Of a stretch of DNA of 7,307 nt, positions 745-7,307 are shown in pieces; the stretch's first letter is position 1, and each line of letters starts with the position of its first letter. Made by a program: the position numbers and the translations under genes. The DNA is from a virus. Taxonomy: Duplodnaviria > Heunggongvirae > Uroviricota > Caudoviricetes. The DNA lies in the IMG/VR virus record IMGVR_UViG_2619619129_000005, one strand, 5' to 3'. The notes under the pieces were generated by a model that saw only the letters and a list, made by a program, of their open reading frames with translations, searched no databases and was not told where the DNA came from.

Positions 745-1065
745 TTAAACGCATTTAAACGTCAGGCGAGCAACGCCATTAACAAGTAAGTGTGTATCAA
801 TATCAGTTCTGACTTCTTTCATAGATTTATTTTGTACCCTACAGAAATCAGAAGCCTTTTTTGTTGCAGTGCCAATAGCGCCTCGTATACGACCTGCAGC
901 AGGAGCAGCTTCTACCTCAGAGAGGTAGTTCCCATTATCCAGTTTTTTGACATCGGACTGATATGTCAGACCCAGGCCTTGAAACTGTGTTTTATCATTT
1001 TGCACAGAGCAACCGCTTAGAAAAGTACCAATTAAAATGGTGGTGGCAATTACTAATGTTTTCAT
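745..1065 (-). CDS. Putative lipoprotein (106 aa)
   Basis: ORF begins MKTLVIATTILIGTFLSGC: hydrophobic signal peptide followed by lipobox L-S-G-C with the invariant Cys, then a hydrophilic mature domain. ATG at 1065..1063, TAA stop at 747..745. Flanking DNA (about 1080..1200) is AT-rich. Not recognised as a named gene. Confidence 0.7.
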   Translation of the reverse strand: MKTLVIATTILIGTFLSGCSVQNDKTQFQGLGLTYQSDVKKLDNGNYLSEVEAAPAAGRIRGAIGTATKKASDFCRVQNKSMKEVRTDIDTHLLVNGVARLTFKCV

Positions 1066-3641: not shown

Positions 3642-4067
3642 TCAATGTACTGCCACAGCATTTCCTGCCGGGCCACCACGGTTCATCTGATTGAAACCGG
3701 CGATTGCCACTGCGACAAAATCATCAGCGTCTCTCACCAGTCGCTCCCGCGTCTCCACCAGCTCCCGAAAATAAGCTGAACTGTGGCTGCGCATTCTGGC
3801 CACCAGCAAAGGTGGCATTGCCTTTTCGATCGCTGGTAACAACGCCTGAATTTTTTCAACTGCATCAGGGGTGTCTTTCTCTACCCAGCGGAAAATTTTC
3901 TGGGTATTGCGAGCCAGGGCTTCCGGATGGCTGTCGTCATACAGTTCCGGGAACGTCATTCCCAGCTCGAAATACGCTTTGGTAATTTTCGCAGCCGGTA
4001 CTTTTTCGCCGTCCGGATGCGCCCAGGCATTCATCGCCATGCGGATGTGTTCATGCTTGATTTTCAT
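3642..4067 (-). CDS. ydaT: YdaT-like protein (141 aa); family once proposed as a toxin, later reported to act as a CII-like regulator
   Basis: ORF MKIKHEHIRMAMNAWAHPDGEKVP... resembles Rac-prophage YdaT as I recall it; length and position (immediately after the Cro-like gene) match. Its ATG (4067..4065) overlaps the upstream gene stop (ATGA), indicating translational coupling. Confidence 0.65.
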   Translation of the reverse strand: MKIKHEHIRMAMNAWAHPDGEKVPAAKITKAYFELGMTFPELYDDSHPEALARNTQKIFRWVEKDTPDAVEKIQALLPAIEKAMPPLLVARMRSHSSAYFRELVETRERLVRDADDFVAVAIAGFNQMNRGGPAGNAVAVH

Positions 4068-4279
4068 GAATCATTCTTTCCTTCGTTCGAGGTGCTATCC
4101 TGCTTCTTGTAAAGTTCTGGGTTGTATTTCAATTCACCGTTAGTAATTTCATCCAGTTCCATTGCGCGAAGTTTGGGAATAACTGCTTTCCACCGCACAA
4201 CAGCCACATGTGAAATTCCAAGAGCCTCAGCTACTAGTCGCTTTTTTTTGAAATAGCGCAGAACATCATCTTTGAACAT
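4064..4279 (-). CDS. Cro-like HTH protein of the YdaS/DicC family (71 aa)
   Basis: ORF MFKDDVLRYFKKKRLVAEALGISHVAVVRWKAVIPKLRAMELDEITNGELKYNPELYKK... with HTH signature (LGISHVAVVRW). ATG at 4279..4277 with AGGAG (complement of 4286..4290) 6 nt upstream. Divergent from the repressor gene. Confidence 0.8.
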   Translation of the reverse strand: MFKDDVLRYFKKKRLVAEALGISHVAVVRWKAVIPKLRAMELDEITNGELKYNPELYKKQDSTSNEGKNDS

Positions 4280-4370
4280 AAAACTCTCCTGTTATTCCGA
4301 GCAGGAGGGTAACAATAGTTACATAGCAATGTCAACCATAGCAACATCACTTGGTAGTAACATTGGTTAC
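4280..4370. promoter_or_regulatory. Divergent OR-like region with two GTAAC-N4-GTTAC operator palindromes
   Basis: GTAAC-AATA-GTTAC at 4309..4322 and GTAAC-ATTG-GTTAC at 4357..4370, centres 48 bp apart. TTGACA on the minus strand (complement of 4330..4335) is a candidate -35 for the Cro-side promoter. The 91-bp gap between divergent start codons is typical of an immunity switch. Confidence 0.55.
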
Positions 4371-5045
4371 ATGAAAAACACTATCAGCGAACGTATTCGG
4401 AATCGTCGAAAAGACGTTGGATTAACCCAACAGCAGGTTGCGAAAGCAATCGGCATATCTCGTGTATCCGTAACAAAATGGGAAAATGGCTCTTCAAAAC
4501 CTGACGGTGAGAATTTGCATCTACTGTCAAAATTGCTTTCCAAATCTCCTGAATGGATTCTTTATGGAAAGGACGGTCACGATAAAACCGATGATCTGCG
4601 TCTGAATCAGTATCTTTACATTAGTGACAACATCGCCCGGTTGCCCGTTTTAACGTGGGAACAGGCTGGTTATTGGGATATGAGTTGTCCAGTAACCGAG
4701 ATTCCTGGCATTAAGAATTGGGTTGATGTCATGACAAAAACCGCTGAAAACTCTTTTTTATTGCATGTTGAGGGAGATGCGATGACAAACTCTAACGGCC
4801 TCCCAACCATCCCCGATGGATCTACCGTGCTGATCACACCATGCTCAAGTAACATTAGAGAACTGGTGGGAAAAATAATCTTAATCCAATTGGAAGGAAC
4901 GCCAAACGTAACACTAAAAAAAGTTGCGATTGACGGACCAAACATCTATCTGTTGTCACTGAATCCGCTTTACAAACCCATCGAACTGAATGGTGGTTAC
5001 ACCATTAAAGGTAAAGTTTCACAAATACATCAATACTTAGACTGA
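4371..5045 (+). CDS. dicA: Prophage repressor: DicA-like HTH N-domain plus LexA/CI-type S24 C-domain, with Ala at the catalytic Ser position
   Basis: N-terminus MKNTISERIRNRRKDVGLTQQQVAKAIGISRVSVTKWENG resembles DicA as I recall it. C-domain LLHVEGDAMTNSNG...TLKKVA...LNPLYKPIELNGGYTIKGKV aligns by eye with lambda CI (VEGNSMTAPTG...FKKL...LNPQYPMI...VVGKV). Start placed at ATG 4371 so both operators stay intergenic (leaderless, like lambda cI from PRM). Alternative starts: ATG 4329 and TTG 4272 (ORF-track start). The symbol is by family resemblance only; K-12 DicA is shorter and lacks the C-domain. Confidence 0.75.
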   Translation: MKNTISERIRNRRKDVGLTQQQVAKAIGISRVSVTKWENGSSKPDGENLHLLSKLLSKSPEWILYGKDGHDKTDDLRLNQYLYISDNIARLPVLTWEQAGYWDMSCPVTEIPGIKNWVDVMTKTAENSFLLHVEGDAMTNSNGLPTIPDGSTVLITPCSSNIRELVGKIILIQLEGTPNVTLKKVAIDGPNIYLLSLNPLYKPIELNGGYTIKGKVSQIHQYLD

Positions 5046-5050
5046 GTCAG

Positions 5051-5075
5051 AACCCGCATTCATTGCGGGTTTTTC
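5051..5075 (+). terminator. Rho-independent terminator after the repressor gene
   Basis: Stem AACCCGCA (5051..5058) / TGCGGGTT (5064..5071), 5-nt loop, followed by TTTTT (5070..5074). Starts 6 nt after the repressor stop (5043..5045). Confidence 0.7.
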
Positions 5076-5107
5076 ACGCTCTCAAATGTACCTTTTGCAA
5101 CATCGTA

Positions 5108-5136
5108 TTGACTCGAAAGGTAACTCTTGTTACCTT
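5108..5136 (+). promoter_or_regulatory. OL/PL-like promoter-operator for the rightward ydfA-dicB operon
   Basis: Perfect 20-bp palindrome AAGGTAAC-TCTT-GTTACCTT (5117..5136), sharing the GTAAC/GTTAC half-sites with the OR palindromes. TTGACT (5108..5113) is a candidate -35 and TACCTT (5131..5136, 17-bp spacer) a weak -10. Position after the repressor terminator mirrors lambda cI-tL-OL/PL. Confidence 0.55.
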
Positions 5137-5317
5137 AACGGCATGCCAACCCACCCCGCCCCACAGAATGCAGGGCAATACTTCGAGTTACCAGGCAGTG
5201 GTCAGGGGTTAAGTAGCCAGCCCGAGGCGTAAGAACATGACGGCAGGGTTCAACTTTAATAACTATGCAGCAGGTTTTTGTTCCGCTACCCCGGCGTTAA
5301 GGGGAAATGAGGTCAGC

Positions 5318-5473
5318 ATGGATACTATCGATCTTGGCAACAGCGAATCTCTGGTATGTGGCGTGTTCCCCAACCAGGACGGTACGTTCACCGCGATGAC
5401 GTATACCAAAAGCAAAACGTTTAAAACCGAAAATGGTGCCCGTCGCTGGCTGGAAAGAAACTCAGGTGAGTGA
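5318..5473 (+). CDS. ydfA: Small prophage protein (51 aa), YdfA/YdaF-like
   Basis: ATG 5318 with GAGGT (5309..5313) upstream; product MDTIDLGNSESLVCGVFPNQDGTFTAMTYTKSKTFKTENGARRWLERNSGE. Size and position (first gene after the OL-like operator) match K-12 ydfA. The ORF-track version starts earlier at 5237 (78 aa), an alternative. Symbol is by size and synteny, not verified by alignment. Confidence 0.6.
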   Translation: MDTIDLGNSESLVCGVFPNQDGTFTAMTYTKSKTFKTENGARRWLERNSGE

Positions 5474-5474
5474 T

Positions 5475-5603
5475 ATGGATTTTGACACAATCATGGAAAA
5501 GGCTTACGAAGAATACTTCGAAGGCCTTGCCGAAGGCGAAGAAGCTCACAGCTTCAACGAATTTAAACAGGTGCTTTCCAGTTCGGCAAAATCTAACGGC
5601 TGA
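5475..5603 (+). CDS. ydfB: Small acidic prophage protein (42 aa), YdfB/YdaG-like
   Basis: ATG 5475 one base after the preceding stop (TGATATG) with AGGTGAG Shine-Dalgarno; product MDFDTIMEKAYEEYFEGLAEGEEAHSFNEFKQVLSSSAKSNG; stop TGA 5601..5603. Below the ORF-track size cutoff. Symbol by size and synteny. Confidence 0.6.
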   Translation: MDFDTIMEKAYEEYFEGLAEGEEAHSFNEFKQVLSSSAKSNG

Positions 5604-5632
5604 TAAGCGAAACAGCACCGCGAGGAATCAGT

Positions 5633-5851
5633 ATGCAGAAACGAGAACCCGTCATCATCGCGCCAGACTATACCGATGATGAACTTTATGAGTGGATGCG
5701 CCAGAAAATTAATGCAGCGCAGGATCTGAAATGGGCTAATGAAGCCAGGGTTAAGCAGGCTGAAAATCTGTCCGCTCTGGAGCAGGATATCACCAATCTG
5801 GAAAAAGCAGCGGCATTAAGCATTGCCAGAATGATTACATACCCGCGTTAA
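5633..5851 (+). CDS. ydfC: Small prophage protein (72 aa), YdfC-like
   Basis: ATG 5633 with GAGGA 6-7 nt upstream; product MQKREPVIIAPDYTDDELYEWMRQKINAAQDLKWANEARVKQAENLSALEQDITNLEKAAALSIARMITYPR. Size and position match K-12 ydfC; symbol by synteny. Confidence 0.65.
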   Translation: MQKREPVIIAPDYTDDELYEWMRQKINAAQDLKWANEARVKQAENLSALEQDITNLEKAAALSIARMITYPR

Positions 5852-6192
5852 TAGATAACCAACGAAGCTAAGGTTGGTAATTAAGGAGTTCTCCACGGGT
5901 GAGGTGGAGTGCGTGCGCCGGACACGGGTGAGCATCCGGCACTGACAGTTTACTGAAAGGATATTTCCCTGAAAAGTCAGACCATAACGCGAAAGCGCAC
6001 GGCGAGGTAGCTGGTTCATAGATAGCCTGTCGTTAAATTTTCGTCGACCGTGCGCTTCCGGTTGTGGCAATCCGCGAAATGGCGCGGCGGTAAGTATGGC
6101 GGGGGTATTCCTTCCCCCGTTGAGGACACCGGGTTGTCAGGTTGACCATACGCTTAAGTGACAACCCCGCTGCAACGCCCTCTGTTATCAAT

Positions 6193-6250
6193 TTTCTGGT
6201 GACGTTTGGCGGTATCAGTTTTACTCCGTGACTGCTCTGCCGCCCTTTTT
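6193..6250 (+). ncRNA. dicF: DicF-like small RNA (about 53 nt) with intrinsic terminator
   Basis: TTTCTGGTGACGTTTGGCGGTATCAGTTTTACTCCGTGACTGCTCTGCCGCCC (6193..6245) followed by TTTTT (6246..6250). GGCGG (6209..6213) pairs with CCGCC (6240..6244). The sequence agrees with my recollection of K-12 DicF and sits in the long gap between ydfC and dicB. Exact 5' end is uncertain because it is made by processing. Confidence 0.6.
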
Positions 6251-6419
6251 AAAGTGAATTTTGTGATGCGGTGAATGCGGCTAAGCGCACGCGGAACAGT
6301 TAAAACCAAAAACAGTGTTATGGGTGGATTCTCTGTATCCGACGTTAATTGTTAACTGGTTAACGTCACCTGGAGGCACCAGGCACTGCATCACAAAATT
6401 CATTGTTGAGGACGCGATA

Positions 6420-6608
6420 ATGAAAACGTTATTACCAAACGTTAATACGTCTGAAGGTTGTTTTGAAATTGGTGTCACTATCAGTAACCCTGTATTTACT
6501 GAAGATGCCATTAACAAGAGAAAACAAGAACGGGAGCTATTAAATAAAATATGCATTGTTTCAATGCTGGCTCGTTTACGTCTAATGCCAAAAGGATGTG
6601 CACAATGA
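6420..6608 (+). CDS. dicB: Cell-division inhibitor DicB (62 aa)
   Basis: Product MKTLLPNVNTSEGCFEIGVTISNPVFTEDAINKRKQERELLNKICIVSMLARLRLMPKGCAQ matches DicB as I recall it. ATG 6420 with GAGGA (6408..6412) 7 nt upstream. The ORF-track version (from 6315) includes an unlikely 5' extension. Confidence 0.85.
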   Translation: MKTLLPNVNTSEGCFEIGVTISNPVFTEDAINKRKQERELLNKICIVSMLARLRLMPKGCAQ

Positions 6609-6796
6609 ATTCAGCATTTGCGCTTGTTCTGACAGTTTTTCTTGTTTCCGGAGTGTCAGTTGATATTGCAGTCAGTGTTCACAGGACAATGCAGGAGTGT
6701 ATGACTGCAGCAACCGAACAGAAAATTCCCGGTAACTGTTACCCGGTCGATAAAGTTATTCACCAGGATAATATCGAAATCCCGGCAGGTCTTTAA
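6605..6796 (+). CDS. ydfD: Small membrane protein YdfD-like (63 aa), reported lysis-type protein
   Basis: ATG 6605 overlaps the dicB stop (ATGA); product MNSAFALVLTVFLVSGVSVDIAVSVHRTMQECMTAATEQKIPGNCYPVDKVIHQDNIEIPAGL with an N-terminal hydrophobic helix. Size and position match K-12 ydfD. Confidence 0.75.
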   Translation: MNSAFALVLTVFLVSGVSVDIAVSVHRTMQECMTAATEQKIPGNCYPVDKVIHQDNIEIPAGL

Positions 6797-6889
6797 AACA
6801 GTTCCGTAATAAATATCCGGTTTCATTTTTATATGCCAGCAATGGCAGGGATTTGTTCATCCTTAAATCTGTCATGAGGTTAAAACAAA

Positions 6890-7307
6890 ATGAGTAAAGT
6901 CTTTATTTGCGCCGCTATTCCTGACGAACTGGCAACAAGGGAAGAAGGCGCTGTGGCTGTAGCCACAGCCATTGAAGCTGGCGACGAACGCCGTGCTCGA
7001 GCAAAATTTCACTGGCAATTCCTGGAACATTATCCGGCTGCTCAGGACTGCGCTTATAAATTTATTGTCTGCGAGGATAAACCTGGTATACCCCGCCCTG
7101 CCCTCGATTCATGGGATGCTGAATATATGCAGGAAAACCGCTGGGATGAGGATTCTGCTTCTTTTGTCCCGGTTGAGACTGAATCCGATCTGATGAACGT
7201 CACTTTTGACAAGCTGGCCCCTGAAGTACAGAACGCTGTCATGGTTAAGTTCGACACATGTGAAAACATCACCGTTGATATGGTTATTAGCGCACAGGAA
7301 TTGTTGC
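6890..7307 (+). CDS. ydfE: Acidic prophage early protein, N-terminal 139 codons (continues past window end), YdfE-like
   Basis: ATG 6890 with GAGGT 9 nt upstream; open frame to the window end: MSKVFICAAIPDELATREEGAVAVATAIEAGDERRARAKFHWQFLEHYPAAQDCAYKFIVCEDKPGIPRPALDSWDAEYMQENRWDEDSASFVPVETESDLMNVTFDKLAPEVQNAVMVKFDTCENITVDMVISAQELL. Absent from the ORF track because it has no stop in the window. Symbol by synteny only. Confidence 0.6.
   Translation, partial: MSKVFICAAIPDELATREEGAVAVATAIEAGDERRARAKFHWQFLEHYPAAQDCAYKFIVCEDKPGIPRPALDSWDAEYMQENRWDEDSASFVPVETESDLMNVTFDKLAPEVQNAVMVKFDTCENITVDMVISAQELL

Follow-up and report, generated by a model that had tools for sequence, protein, structure and literature searches.

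A natural prophage repressor with alanine at the catalytic serine position of its S24 domain, and a lambdoid switch that RecA probably cannot flip

Lambda CI and P22 C2, repressors of MEROPS family S24, combine a domain of the helix-turn-helix type (HTH) with a C-terminal domain that has an Ala-Gly cleavage site, a Ser nucleophile and a general-base Lys, and their genes stand beside a divergent cro with palindromic operators on both sides. The laboratory variants CI S149A and LexA S119A (ind-minus and lexA(Ind-)), in which this Ser is replaced by Ala, are non-cleavable. In the Qin prophage of Escherichia coli K-12, DicA and DicC form a bistable switch that flips spontaneously and independently of recA; Rem serves as its antirepressor, and mitomycin C does not induce it (PMC10448788). 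The repressors of the Gifsy type, 186 and N15 have no peptidase domain, and those of the Gifsy type are answered by LexA-controlled antirepressors acting in trans (PMC3121763). The repressors of the prophages Sp4, Sp6, Sp9 and Sp10 of O157 Sakai also have no peptidase domain, and mitomycin C reportedly fails to induce three of these prophages, Sp6, Sp9 and Sp10 (PMC2669165). Non-autoproteolytic cI-type repressors are already a recognised class (PMC10448788, PMC3121763, PMC2669165), and Silpe et al. have sorted cI proteins by the presence of the catalytic residues (PMC10432266). Here we describe a repressor gene in a 7,307-nucleotide stretch of Caudoviricetes DNA (IMG/VR record IMGVR_UViG_2619619129_000005, the whole of which is called the window below), whose product has the CI/LexA-type architecture with Ala in place of the nucleophile. 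We consider it probable that it is a natural S24 repressor which has no nucleophile, still represses, and leaves the switch of a lambdoid Qin/Rac-like prophage deaf to RecA. Searches of the literature by accession and by concept turned up neither a description of this Ala allele nor any immunity group in which Ser and Ala are said to alternate.

The repressor gene (positions 4371-5045, plus strand, from the list of open reading frames (ORFs)) encodes 224 amino acid residues and is annotated in RefSeq as ‘LexA family protein’. In Pfam, residues 9-63 match HTH_3 (E 2e-16) and residues 92-216 match Peptidase_S24 (E 9.4e-17), the latter match covering profile positions 1-115 of 116. The top match among solved structures in a phmmer search is full-length lambda CI (3bdn, chain 3bdn_A, E 9.8e-14), although the identity to CI is only about 25%, and for the N-terminal domain the nearest match is P22 C2 (E 2.6e-12). 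In the alignment with CI, the cleavage-site dipeptide A99-G100 (codons GCT GGT, 4665-4670, plus strand) corresponds to A111-G112 of CI (‘pvltweqAGyw’ versus ‘pvfshvqAGmf’), and K183 (codon AAA, 4917-4919, plus strand) corresponds to the general base K192 (‘vtlKKva’ versus ‘ftfKKli’); both features are identical in 80 of 80 IMG/VR copies, and the Lys codon is AAA in all the clades described below. The nucleophile S149 of CI is matched by A137 (codon GCG, 4779-4781, plus strand; ‘llhvegdAMtn’ versus ‘wlevegnSMta’). Across a family alignment of 43 sequences, the conservation of Ser at this column is 90% or higher, and the same holds for the Ala-Gly and the Lys. A catalytic Ser elsewhere in the protein is ruled out by the Pfam, lambda CI and family alignments, all of which put the column at residue 137. 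The AlphaFold model (mean predicted local distance difference test score 81, with low confidence only in linker residues 70-83) has its best Foldseek matches in lambda CI, its cleavage-competent fragment, LexA and UmuD (3bdn, 2hnf, 8gmu and LexA structures), while its N-terminal domain matches P22 C2 structurally; the S-to-A LexA mutant structures 1jhc, 1jhh, 6a2s and 8s7g are also among the fold matches. The domain type, the kept Ala-Gly bond and Lys and the position of the Ser column had been read by eye in the original prediction, and all of them agree with the profile, CI, family and fold comparisons. Hence, of the features of S24 autoproteolytic repressors, the protein has the HTH and S24 fold, the Ala-Gly bond and the Lys, and it has no Ser nucleophile in the G-x-S-M motif; unlike in lambda CI and P22 C2, the self-cleavage chemistry should therefore be absent. 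RefSeq annotates a longer form of 238 residues starting at ATG 4329, and the choice of start has no effect on the Ala137 finding.

The Ala allele is real and common. The repressor gene is present in 702 of 5,426 complete E. coli genomes and at least 95% identical in 694 of them. The codon is GCG in 78 of the 80 IMG/VR copies and TCG in 2, and GCG was found in every Ala-clade locus that was read directly. The two TCG alleles of IMG/VR have 24-25 other differences from the window, mostly synonymous, and this natural TCG (Ser) allele belongs to a sister sublineage and is 96% identical in nucleotide sequence to the window gene. A 61-mer taken from it occurs exactly in 8 complete genomes, mostly O55:H7, and direct reading of CB9615 confirms it; 3 more genomes match this 61-mer with two mismatches, and the one of these that was read (L097) has a diverged Ala allele with GCG. 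A 61-mer that has TCG within the window's own sequence is matched exactly nowhere, the matches listed all carrying the single designed mismatch, although such a probe is blind to TCG on a diverged background. A distant Ser clade (TCA, 88% protein identity; c3 below) is found in 8 complete genomes, and the tally among the 702 carriers is about 686 Ala and 16 Ser genomes, the figure of about 686 being an indirect one from short-probe matches. An error of sequencing or assembly at 4779 might be suspected, as GCG is one base from TCG and the TCG allele occurs naturally, and the original prediction had left this point to reads and other assemblies. GCG recurs, however, in independent assemblies (most of the roughly 686 complete genomes and 78 IMG/VR contigs), and those 24-25 further positions also set the natural TCG allele apart from the window; an error, to which we give practically no weight, is already refuted because the population data show GCG, and the codon is genuine. 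In complete E. coli genomes there are 704 matching places, 1 of them on a plasmid, and some genomes have two repressor copies. A scan of genome contigs for the exact peptide pattern, which needs near-identity and in which the E. coli representative does not have the gene, gave two unrelated HTH matches only.

The homologues fall into five clades, each with a uniform state at residue 137 in every member read, apart from the O55:H7 sublineage. Clade c1 (E. coli and E. albertii, including the window; 99% protein identity to the window) has Ala encoded by GCG, with the O55:H7 Ser sublineage (TCG) inside it; c2 (E. coli, 89%) has Ala with GCG, c3 (E. coli, 88%) has Ser with TCA, c4 (Salmonella, 70%) has Ala with GCA and c5 (Enterobacter, 66%) has Ser with TCG. 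Only Ser or Ala occurs at this residue within the five clades, and Ser is the state of all the relatives that lie further out in the tree. Moreover, the window has perfect GTAAC-N4-GTTAC palindromes at three places (4309-4322, 4357-4370 and 5120-5133), where chance would give 0.15, and their placement with respect to the repressor start is unchanged across the five clades, which span E. coli, Salmonella and Enterobacter, although the intervening DNA has diverged. This suggests that all five clades are one immunity group with both Ser and Ala repressors. Fitch parsimony gives at least 3 Ser/Ala changes at the codon on every tree resolution tested, and the residue-137 column is among the three to five most homoplastic ones in the protein, the others being freely variable or conservative positions. 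The O55:H7 Ser allele has a local haplotype in common with an Ala allele (L041), and the third base of its codon is still G, which is not so in c3; both points disfavour a simple recombination patch. Thus, the Ser/Ala state of the codon appears to have changed several times within a single immunity group, with Ala far commoner in sequenced E. coli; by the codon sequences, repeated Ser-to-Ala changes and Ala-to-Ser reversions would need the same number of steps.

The Ala protein is kept by strong purifying selection. Between c1 and c2, which are both Ala and are separated by a synonymous divergence (dS) of 0.69, the ratio of nonsynonymous to synonymous divergence (dN/dS) is 0.05 in the C-terminal domain and 0.08 in the HTH domain. 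There is no internal stop or frameshift in any of the 80 copies, and within the clade 34 codons vary only synonymously against 14 at the amino acid level, several of the 14 being in the linker. In this the natural allele differs from the laboratory S-to-A mutants of CI and LexA, with which it has in common the residue, the replacement and the otherwise intact protein: it is common, has long been under purifying selection and alternates with Ser among close alleles. Among the 97 nearest 50%-identity cluster representatives of the same architecture, 15 are without Ser in the column (Thr in 6, Ala in 4, and five others), and in 11 of these the Ala-Gly site is gone too, and one has lost the Lys as well, whereas in the Ala allele only the nucleophile is changed. 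Judged from these sequences, S24 repressors without the Ser are not rare, and the clean, selected change of a single residue appears to be the less common pattern.

Relatives from insect endosymbionts have lost the GxSM motif, the Ala-Gly or the Lys, with several positions affected together. Three homologues seem to have lost cleavage competence by other routes, two of them from Arsenophonus: in P0010 the Ala-Gly is changed to Ile-Ser, in P0027 the GDSM motif is destroyed, and in P0075 Ala-Val replaces Ala-Gly and the Lys is changed to Arg. Such decay of catalytic motifs at many positions, together with the IS (insertion sequence) and rearrangement scars towards the left of the window's prophage, would be in keeping with the view that the gene is a functionless, decaying remnant of a once-cleavable repressor in a dead prophage. 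We hold this to be very improbable, as the C-terminal domain has the low dN/dS given above over the divergence of two Ala lineages, no copy is interrupted, the operators are perfectly conserved, only one catalytic residue is changed, and always to Ala, and the allele occurs in prophages that are largely complete by annotation at several attachment sites. The search for cluster representatives also gave three very long proteins of 1,002 to 4,162 residues (P0136, P0137 and P0151), with 11 to 30 HTH-domain matches each, which look as if many HTH domains of the Cro/C1 type were strung together in giant tandem arrays.

The prophages in which the Ala allele occurs are lambdoid ones with integrase, excisionase, replication, Q, lysis, terminase, portal and tail genes, located at ompW, potC and tRNA-Ser/mtfA, while the window itself has Qin-type flanks; some of the copies have IS insertions, a frameshifted integrase or some disrupted genes. 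The several sites and the largely complete prophages indicate that the Ala allele is a working immunity module of a widespread phage group rather than the scar of one remnant. Together with the strong purifying selection, they weaken the suggestion, made from the window alone, that the prophage is a locked resident element.

We propose that the repressor would bind the GTAAC-N4-GTTAC operators on both sides of its own gene and would silence on one side the operon of cro, a ydaT-like gene and replication genes and on the other side the ydfABC-dicF-dicB operon. By the precedent of CI S149A and LexA S119A, the Ala137 protein would be unable to cut its own Ala-Gly bond, and the S24 domain is probably kept as a module for dimerisation and cooperativity, the role of the C-terminal domain in lambda CI. 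If there is no self-cleavage, activated RecA could not flip the switch directly, and any derepression would have to be non-proteolytic, either by Cro-driven bistable switching, as with DicA/DicC, or by an antirepressor, as with Rem on DicA. Hence the Ala variant of the master repressor probably makes the prophage switch blind to DNA damage, and by analogy with the laboratory mutants the protein should best be treated as a non-peptidase homologue that acts like a lambda ind-minus repressor.

Several points weigh against this proposal. The non-cleavage of the Ala137 protein is taken from other members of the family, and the operators and promoters are read from the sequence, so that binding is a prediction; moreover, a stringent sigma-70 scan of 4000-5400 found no promoter, the proposed ones being weaker matches found by eye. 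The ratio of 686:16 counts genomes and not independent lineages, and clonal over-sampling inflates it, while the minimum of 3 switches presupposes that the alleles have not recombined; recombination is frequent in lambdoid phages and could lower the number of events. At more than 60% identity, neither the Ala nor the Ser forms of the immunity group were found in a set of 50,697 records of sequenced phages, and since the Ser forms are missing too, this absence is uninformative about the Ala form or its inducibility. Finally, carriers that look largely complete should have some route of induction, yet none was found: the window has no canonical LexA box, either by pattern search or by a position-weight matrix built from 19 E. 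coli SOS boxes, and no antirepressor gene is consistently linked to the Ala allele, whole prophages having been covered for few carriers.

The completeness of the carriers leads to the explanation that the repressor is non-cleaving but the prophage is still SOS-inducible, through a LexA-controlled antirepressor of the same or a co-resident prophage, as in Gifsy, 186 and N15. There are precedents in the trans-acting LexA-controlled antirepressors documented for short non-cleaving repressors related to DicA (PMC3121763) and in Rem, which derepresses DicA in K-12 Qin (PMC10448788), and the locus resembles the Gifsy-type, 186 and N15 systems in having a repressor that SOS is predicted not to destroy directly, in prophages largely complete by annotation. 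It differs from them in that the LexA box and the antirepressor, which are defined there (PMC3121763), were not found here. A strong LexA-like box in two carrier prophages and an ash/Rha gene pair at the far end of one speak for such a route, whereas the lack of a LexA box in the window, the position of the strong box at the 5′ end of a methyltransferase gene, its absence from three other carriers (L001, L012 and L014), the lack of a LexA box upstream of the ash/Rha pair and the presence of a lipoprotein gene in the place of rem, no homologue of which was found in the carriers examined, speak against it. Taking both sides together, we regard an SOS-controlled antirepressor as unlikely.

The strong box, AACTGGATATTTTTACAGTA, lies at L011:11769-11788 and L007:368-387 and scores 23.7 on the matrix, against a median of 21.1 for the 19 SOS boxes; the gene that has it at its 5′ end, as annotated, is located downstream of Q and codes for a phage DNA methyltransferase, which may be SOS-regulated. 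The ash-family gene and the Rha-family regulator (Phage_pRha) lie at L013:479-1308, at the far end of an Ala-type prophage beside an ompW remnant, with a promoter-like sequence, TTGACA-17-TATATT, upstream; the pair is a possible antirepressor lead. In the O55:H7 Ser-type prophage, a gene annotated as ‘phage antirepressor N-terminal domain-containing protein’ is located within the lysis cassette (L098:6365-6934).

The C-terminal domains of LexA and CI are known to cleave intermolecularly in vitro. The Ala repressor might accordingly still be inactivated by proteolysis after DNA damage, either in trans by an active homologue such as a co-resident Ser-type repressor or by a substitute nucleophile. 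The Ala-Gly and the Lys are present without exception, both in the 80 of 80 copies and in every clade, and mixed oligomers are plausible because the Ser and Ala alleles share operators and have near-identical C-terminal domains. On the other hand, the cleavage-site strand and the Lys have structural roles too, so their retention needs no cleavage, Ser-type partners are rare (16 of the 702 carrier genomes), and there is no candidate for a substitute nucleophile specific to the Ala allele, Thr139 being family-wide and Cys158 (‘TPCS’) being also present in the Ser-type alleles of the group. Cleavage by either way thus seems quite unlikely to us, and the non-cleaving repressor is retained as the preferred reading.

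A wider proposal, about which we are doubtful, is that the catalytic-Ser codon is an evolutionary on/off toggle for SOS inducibility in this immunity group. If so, the Ser phages would be inducible by DNA damage, a single-base change from T to G would give an ind-minus repressor favoured by selection, and the change from G to T would restore inducibility. The ind-minus repressor would steady the lysogen and keep the toxic dicB/dicF operon silent during DNA damage, and because the operators are shared it would give SOS-proof immunity against the Ser-type phages of the group, with a dominant block of their induction. Under the same proposal, the strictly preserved Ala-Gly might make the Ala form cleavable when it is combined with a Ser partner in mixed oligomers.

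On the preferred reading, a prophage switch that is probably beyond the reach of RecA is present in about 13% of complete E. coli genomes, which matters where inducibility is predicted from annotation: the protein is everywhere named ‘LexA family protein’ or ‘S24 family peptidase’, so domain-based pipelines would score these prophages as SOS-inducible. Cell division and the function of phage receptors are affected by dicB and dicF; as the switch would govern both, the allele would decide whether DNA damage reaches these host-affecting genes. Furthermore, the natural O55:H7 Ser allele and the Ala allele of the window are a matched pair with identical operators, 96% identical and 24-25 nucleotides apart besides the codon, which bears on how and why temperate phages drop induction by DNA damage and on whether an ind-minus repressor that is already resident holds related inducible prophages in check.

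The window is 98-100% identical to K-12 Qin at 1-523, 1270-1659 and 5280-7307, with no match between these segments. The locus is the same as that of DicA/DicC, with flanks including ydfABC-dicF-dicB in common, and DicA, too, is not cleaved and does not respond to mitomycin C (PMC10448788). The repressor and DicA have homologous HTH domains, with 54% identity over 70 residues (4-73) by BLASTP, and are unrelated beyond; the NCBIfam model for DicA (NF007257) scores 81.7 bits against a cutoff of 101 and covers residues 3-88 only, which leaves the protein outside the DicA family. The Cro-type protein is a different protein from DicC, and, unlike in K-12 Qin, Rem was not found beside the carriers examined. 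Since the DNA homology ends at the edges of the immunity module, there are two alternative immunity cassettes at one locus and not a parent and its truncation. The original prediction had rightly described DicA as having no S24 domain (it has 135 residues, with an unrelated C-terminal half), but its idea that the repressor is an ancestral full-length form of DicA is not supported, as only the HTH is shared and the cassettes are non-homologous.

A divergent gene of the P22_Cro family and the repeated palindromic operators flanking the repressor gene mark the protein, on sequence grounds, as a lambdoid immunity repressor. The cro-type gene (4064-4279, minus strand, 71 residues; ORF list and Pfam) is the first gene of the rightward-type operon and is followed in the cII position by a YdaT-family gene (3642-4067, minus strand, 141 residues; Pfam), beyond which lie a replication gene and a DUF977 gene. 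YdaT has been proposed as a CII analogue (PMC8630535). Downstream of the repressor is the operon of ydfA, ydfB, ydfC, DicF, dicB and ydfD (5318-6796, plus strand; 98% identical to K-12 Qin; Pfam DUF1391 and DicB), in which the small RNA DicF is at 6194-6245 (Rfam RF00039, 76.7 bits) and dicB at 6420-6608 (Pfam DicB). In K-12 the promoter dicBp is repressed by DicA (PMC10448788), and the candidate equivalent here is a leftward-type promoter at 5108-5136 (plus strand; hexamers TTGACT and TACCTT 17 bp apart), which presumably controls the ydfABC-dicF-dicB operon; the operator GTAACTCTTGTTAC (5120-5133) covers its spacer and the first half of its -10 hexamer. On the other side, the operator GTAACAATAGTTAC (4309-4322), like lambda OR1, covers the spacer and the -10 region of the putative leftward cro promoter, and the operator GTAACATTGGTTAC (4357-4370) abuts ATG 4371, like lambda OR3. 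The candidate -35 of the cro promoter is TTGACA (4330-4335, minus strand), with TACCCT 18 bp downstream, and the motif ‘TGTCAACC’ at this -35 is kept in all clades. A putative weak operator with a 7/10 match (4332-4345), 23 and 25 bp from the centres of the perfect sites, has a spacing that recalls lambda OR1-OR2-OR3. Directly past the repressor stop there is a likely terminator (5049-5073, plus strand), a GC-rich hairpin followed by a T run (-18 kcal/mol, z-score -5.7), which a simple terminator scan missed.

The 14-codon N-terminal extension of the RefSeq form (4329-4370; MSTIATSLGSNIGY) overlaps the operator at 4357-4370, where the in-frame reading is S-N-I-G-Y, and because of this overlap its apparent amino acid conservation may be due to the operator and not to coding. 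With ATG 4371 as the actual start, a leaderless transcript like that of lambda cI would be possible, for which TAACAT (4358-4363) would be the -10. At the left end, the window has part of relE, relB (158-397) and part of ydfV, with 99.6% identity to K-12, and 1270-1659 is identical to the ydfW region of K-12. Between the relB/ydfV and ydfW-like segments, an ORF of 106 residues (745-1065, minus strand) has a lipoprotein-like signal (MKTLVIATTILIGTFLSGC...) and no Pfam match, and this stretch has no counterpart in K-12 Qin. In addition, in NCTC9699, the nearest full-length relative, an ISEsa1 transposase remnant lies just past the ydfW-like segment, and this part of the prophage (1-523, 1270-2030) is rearranged.

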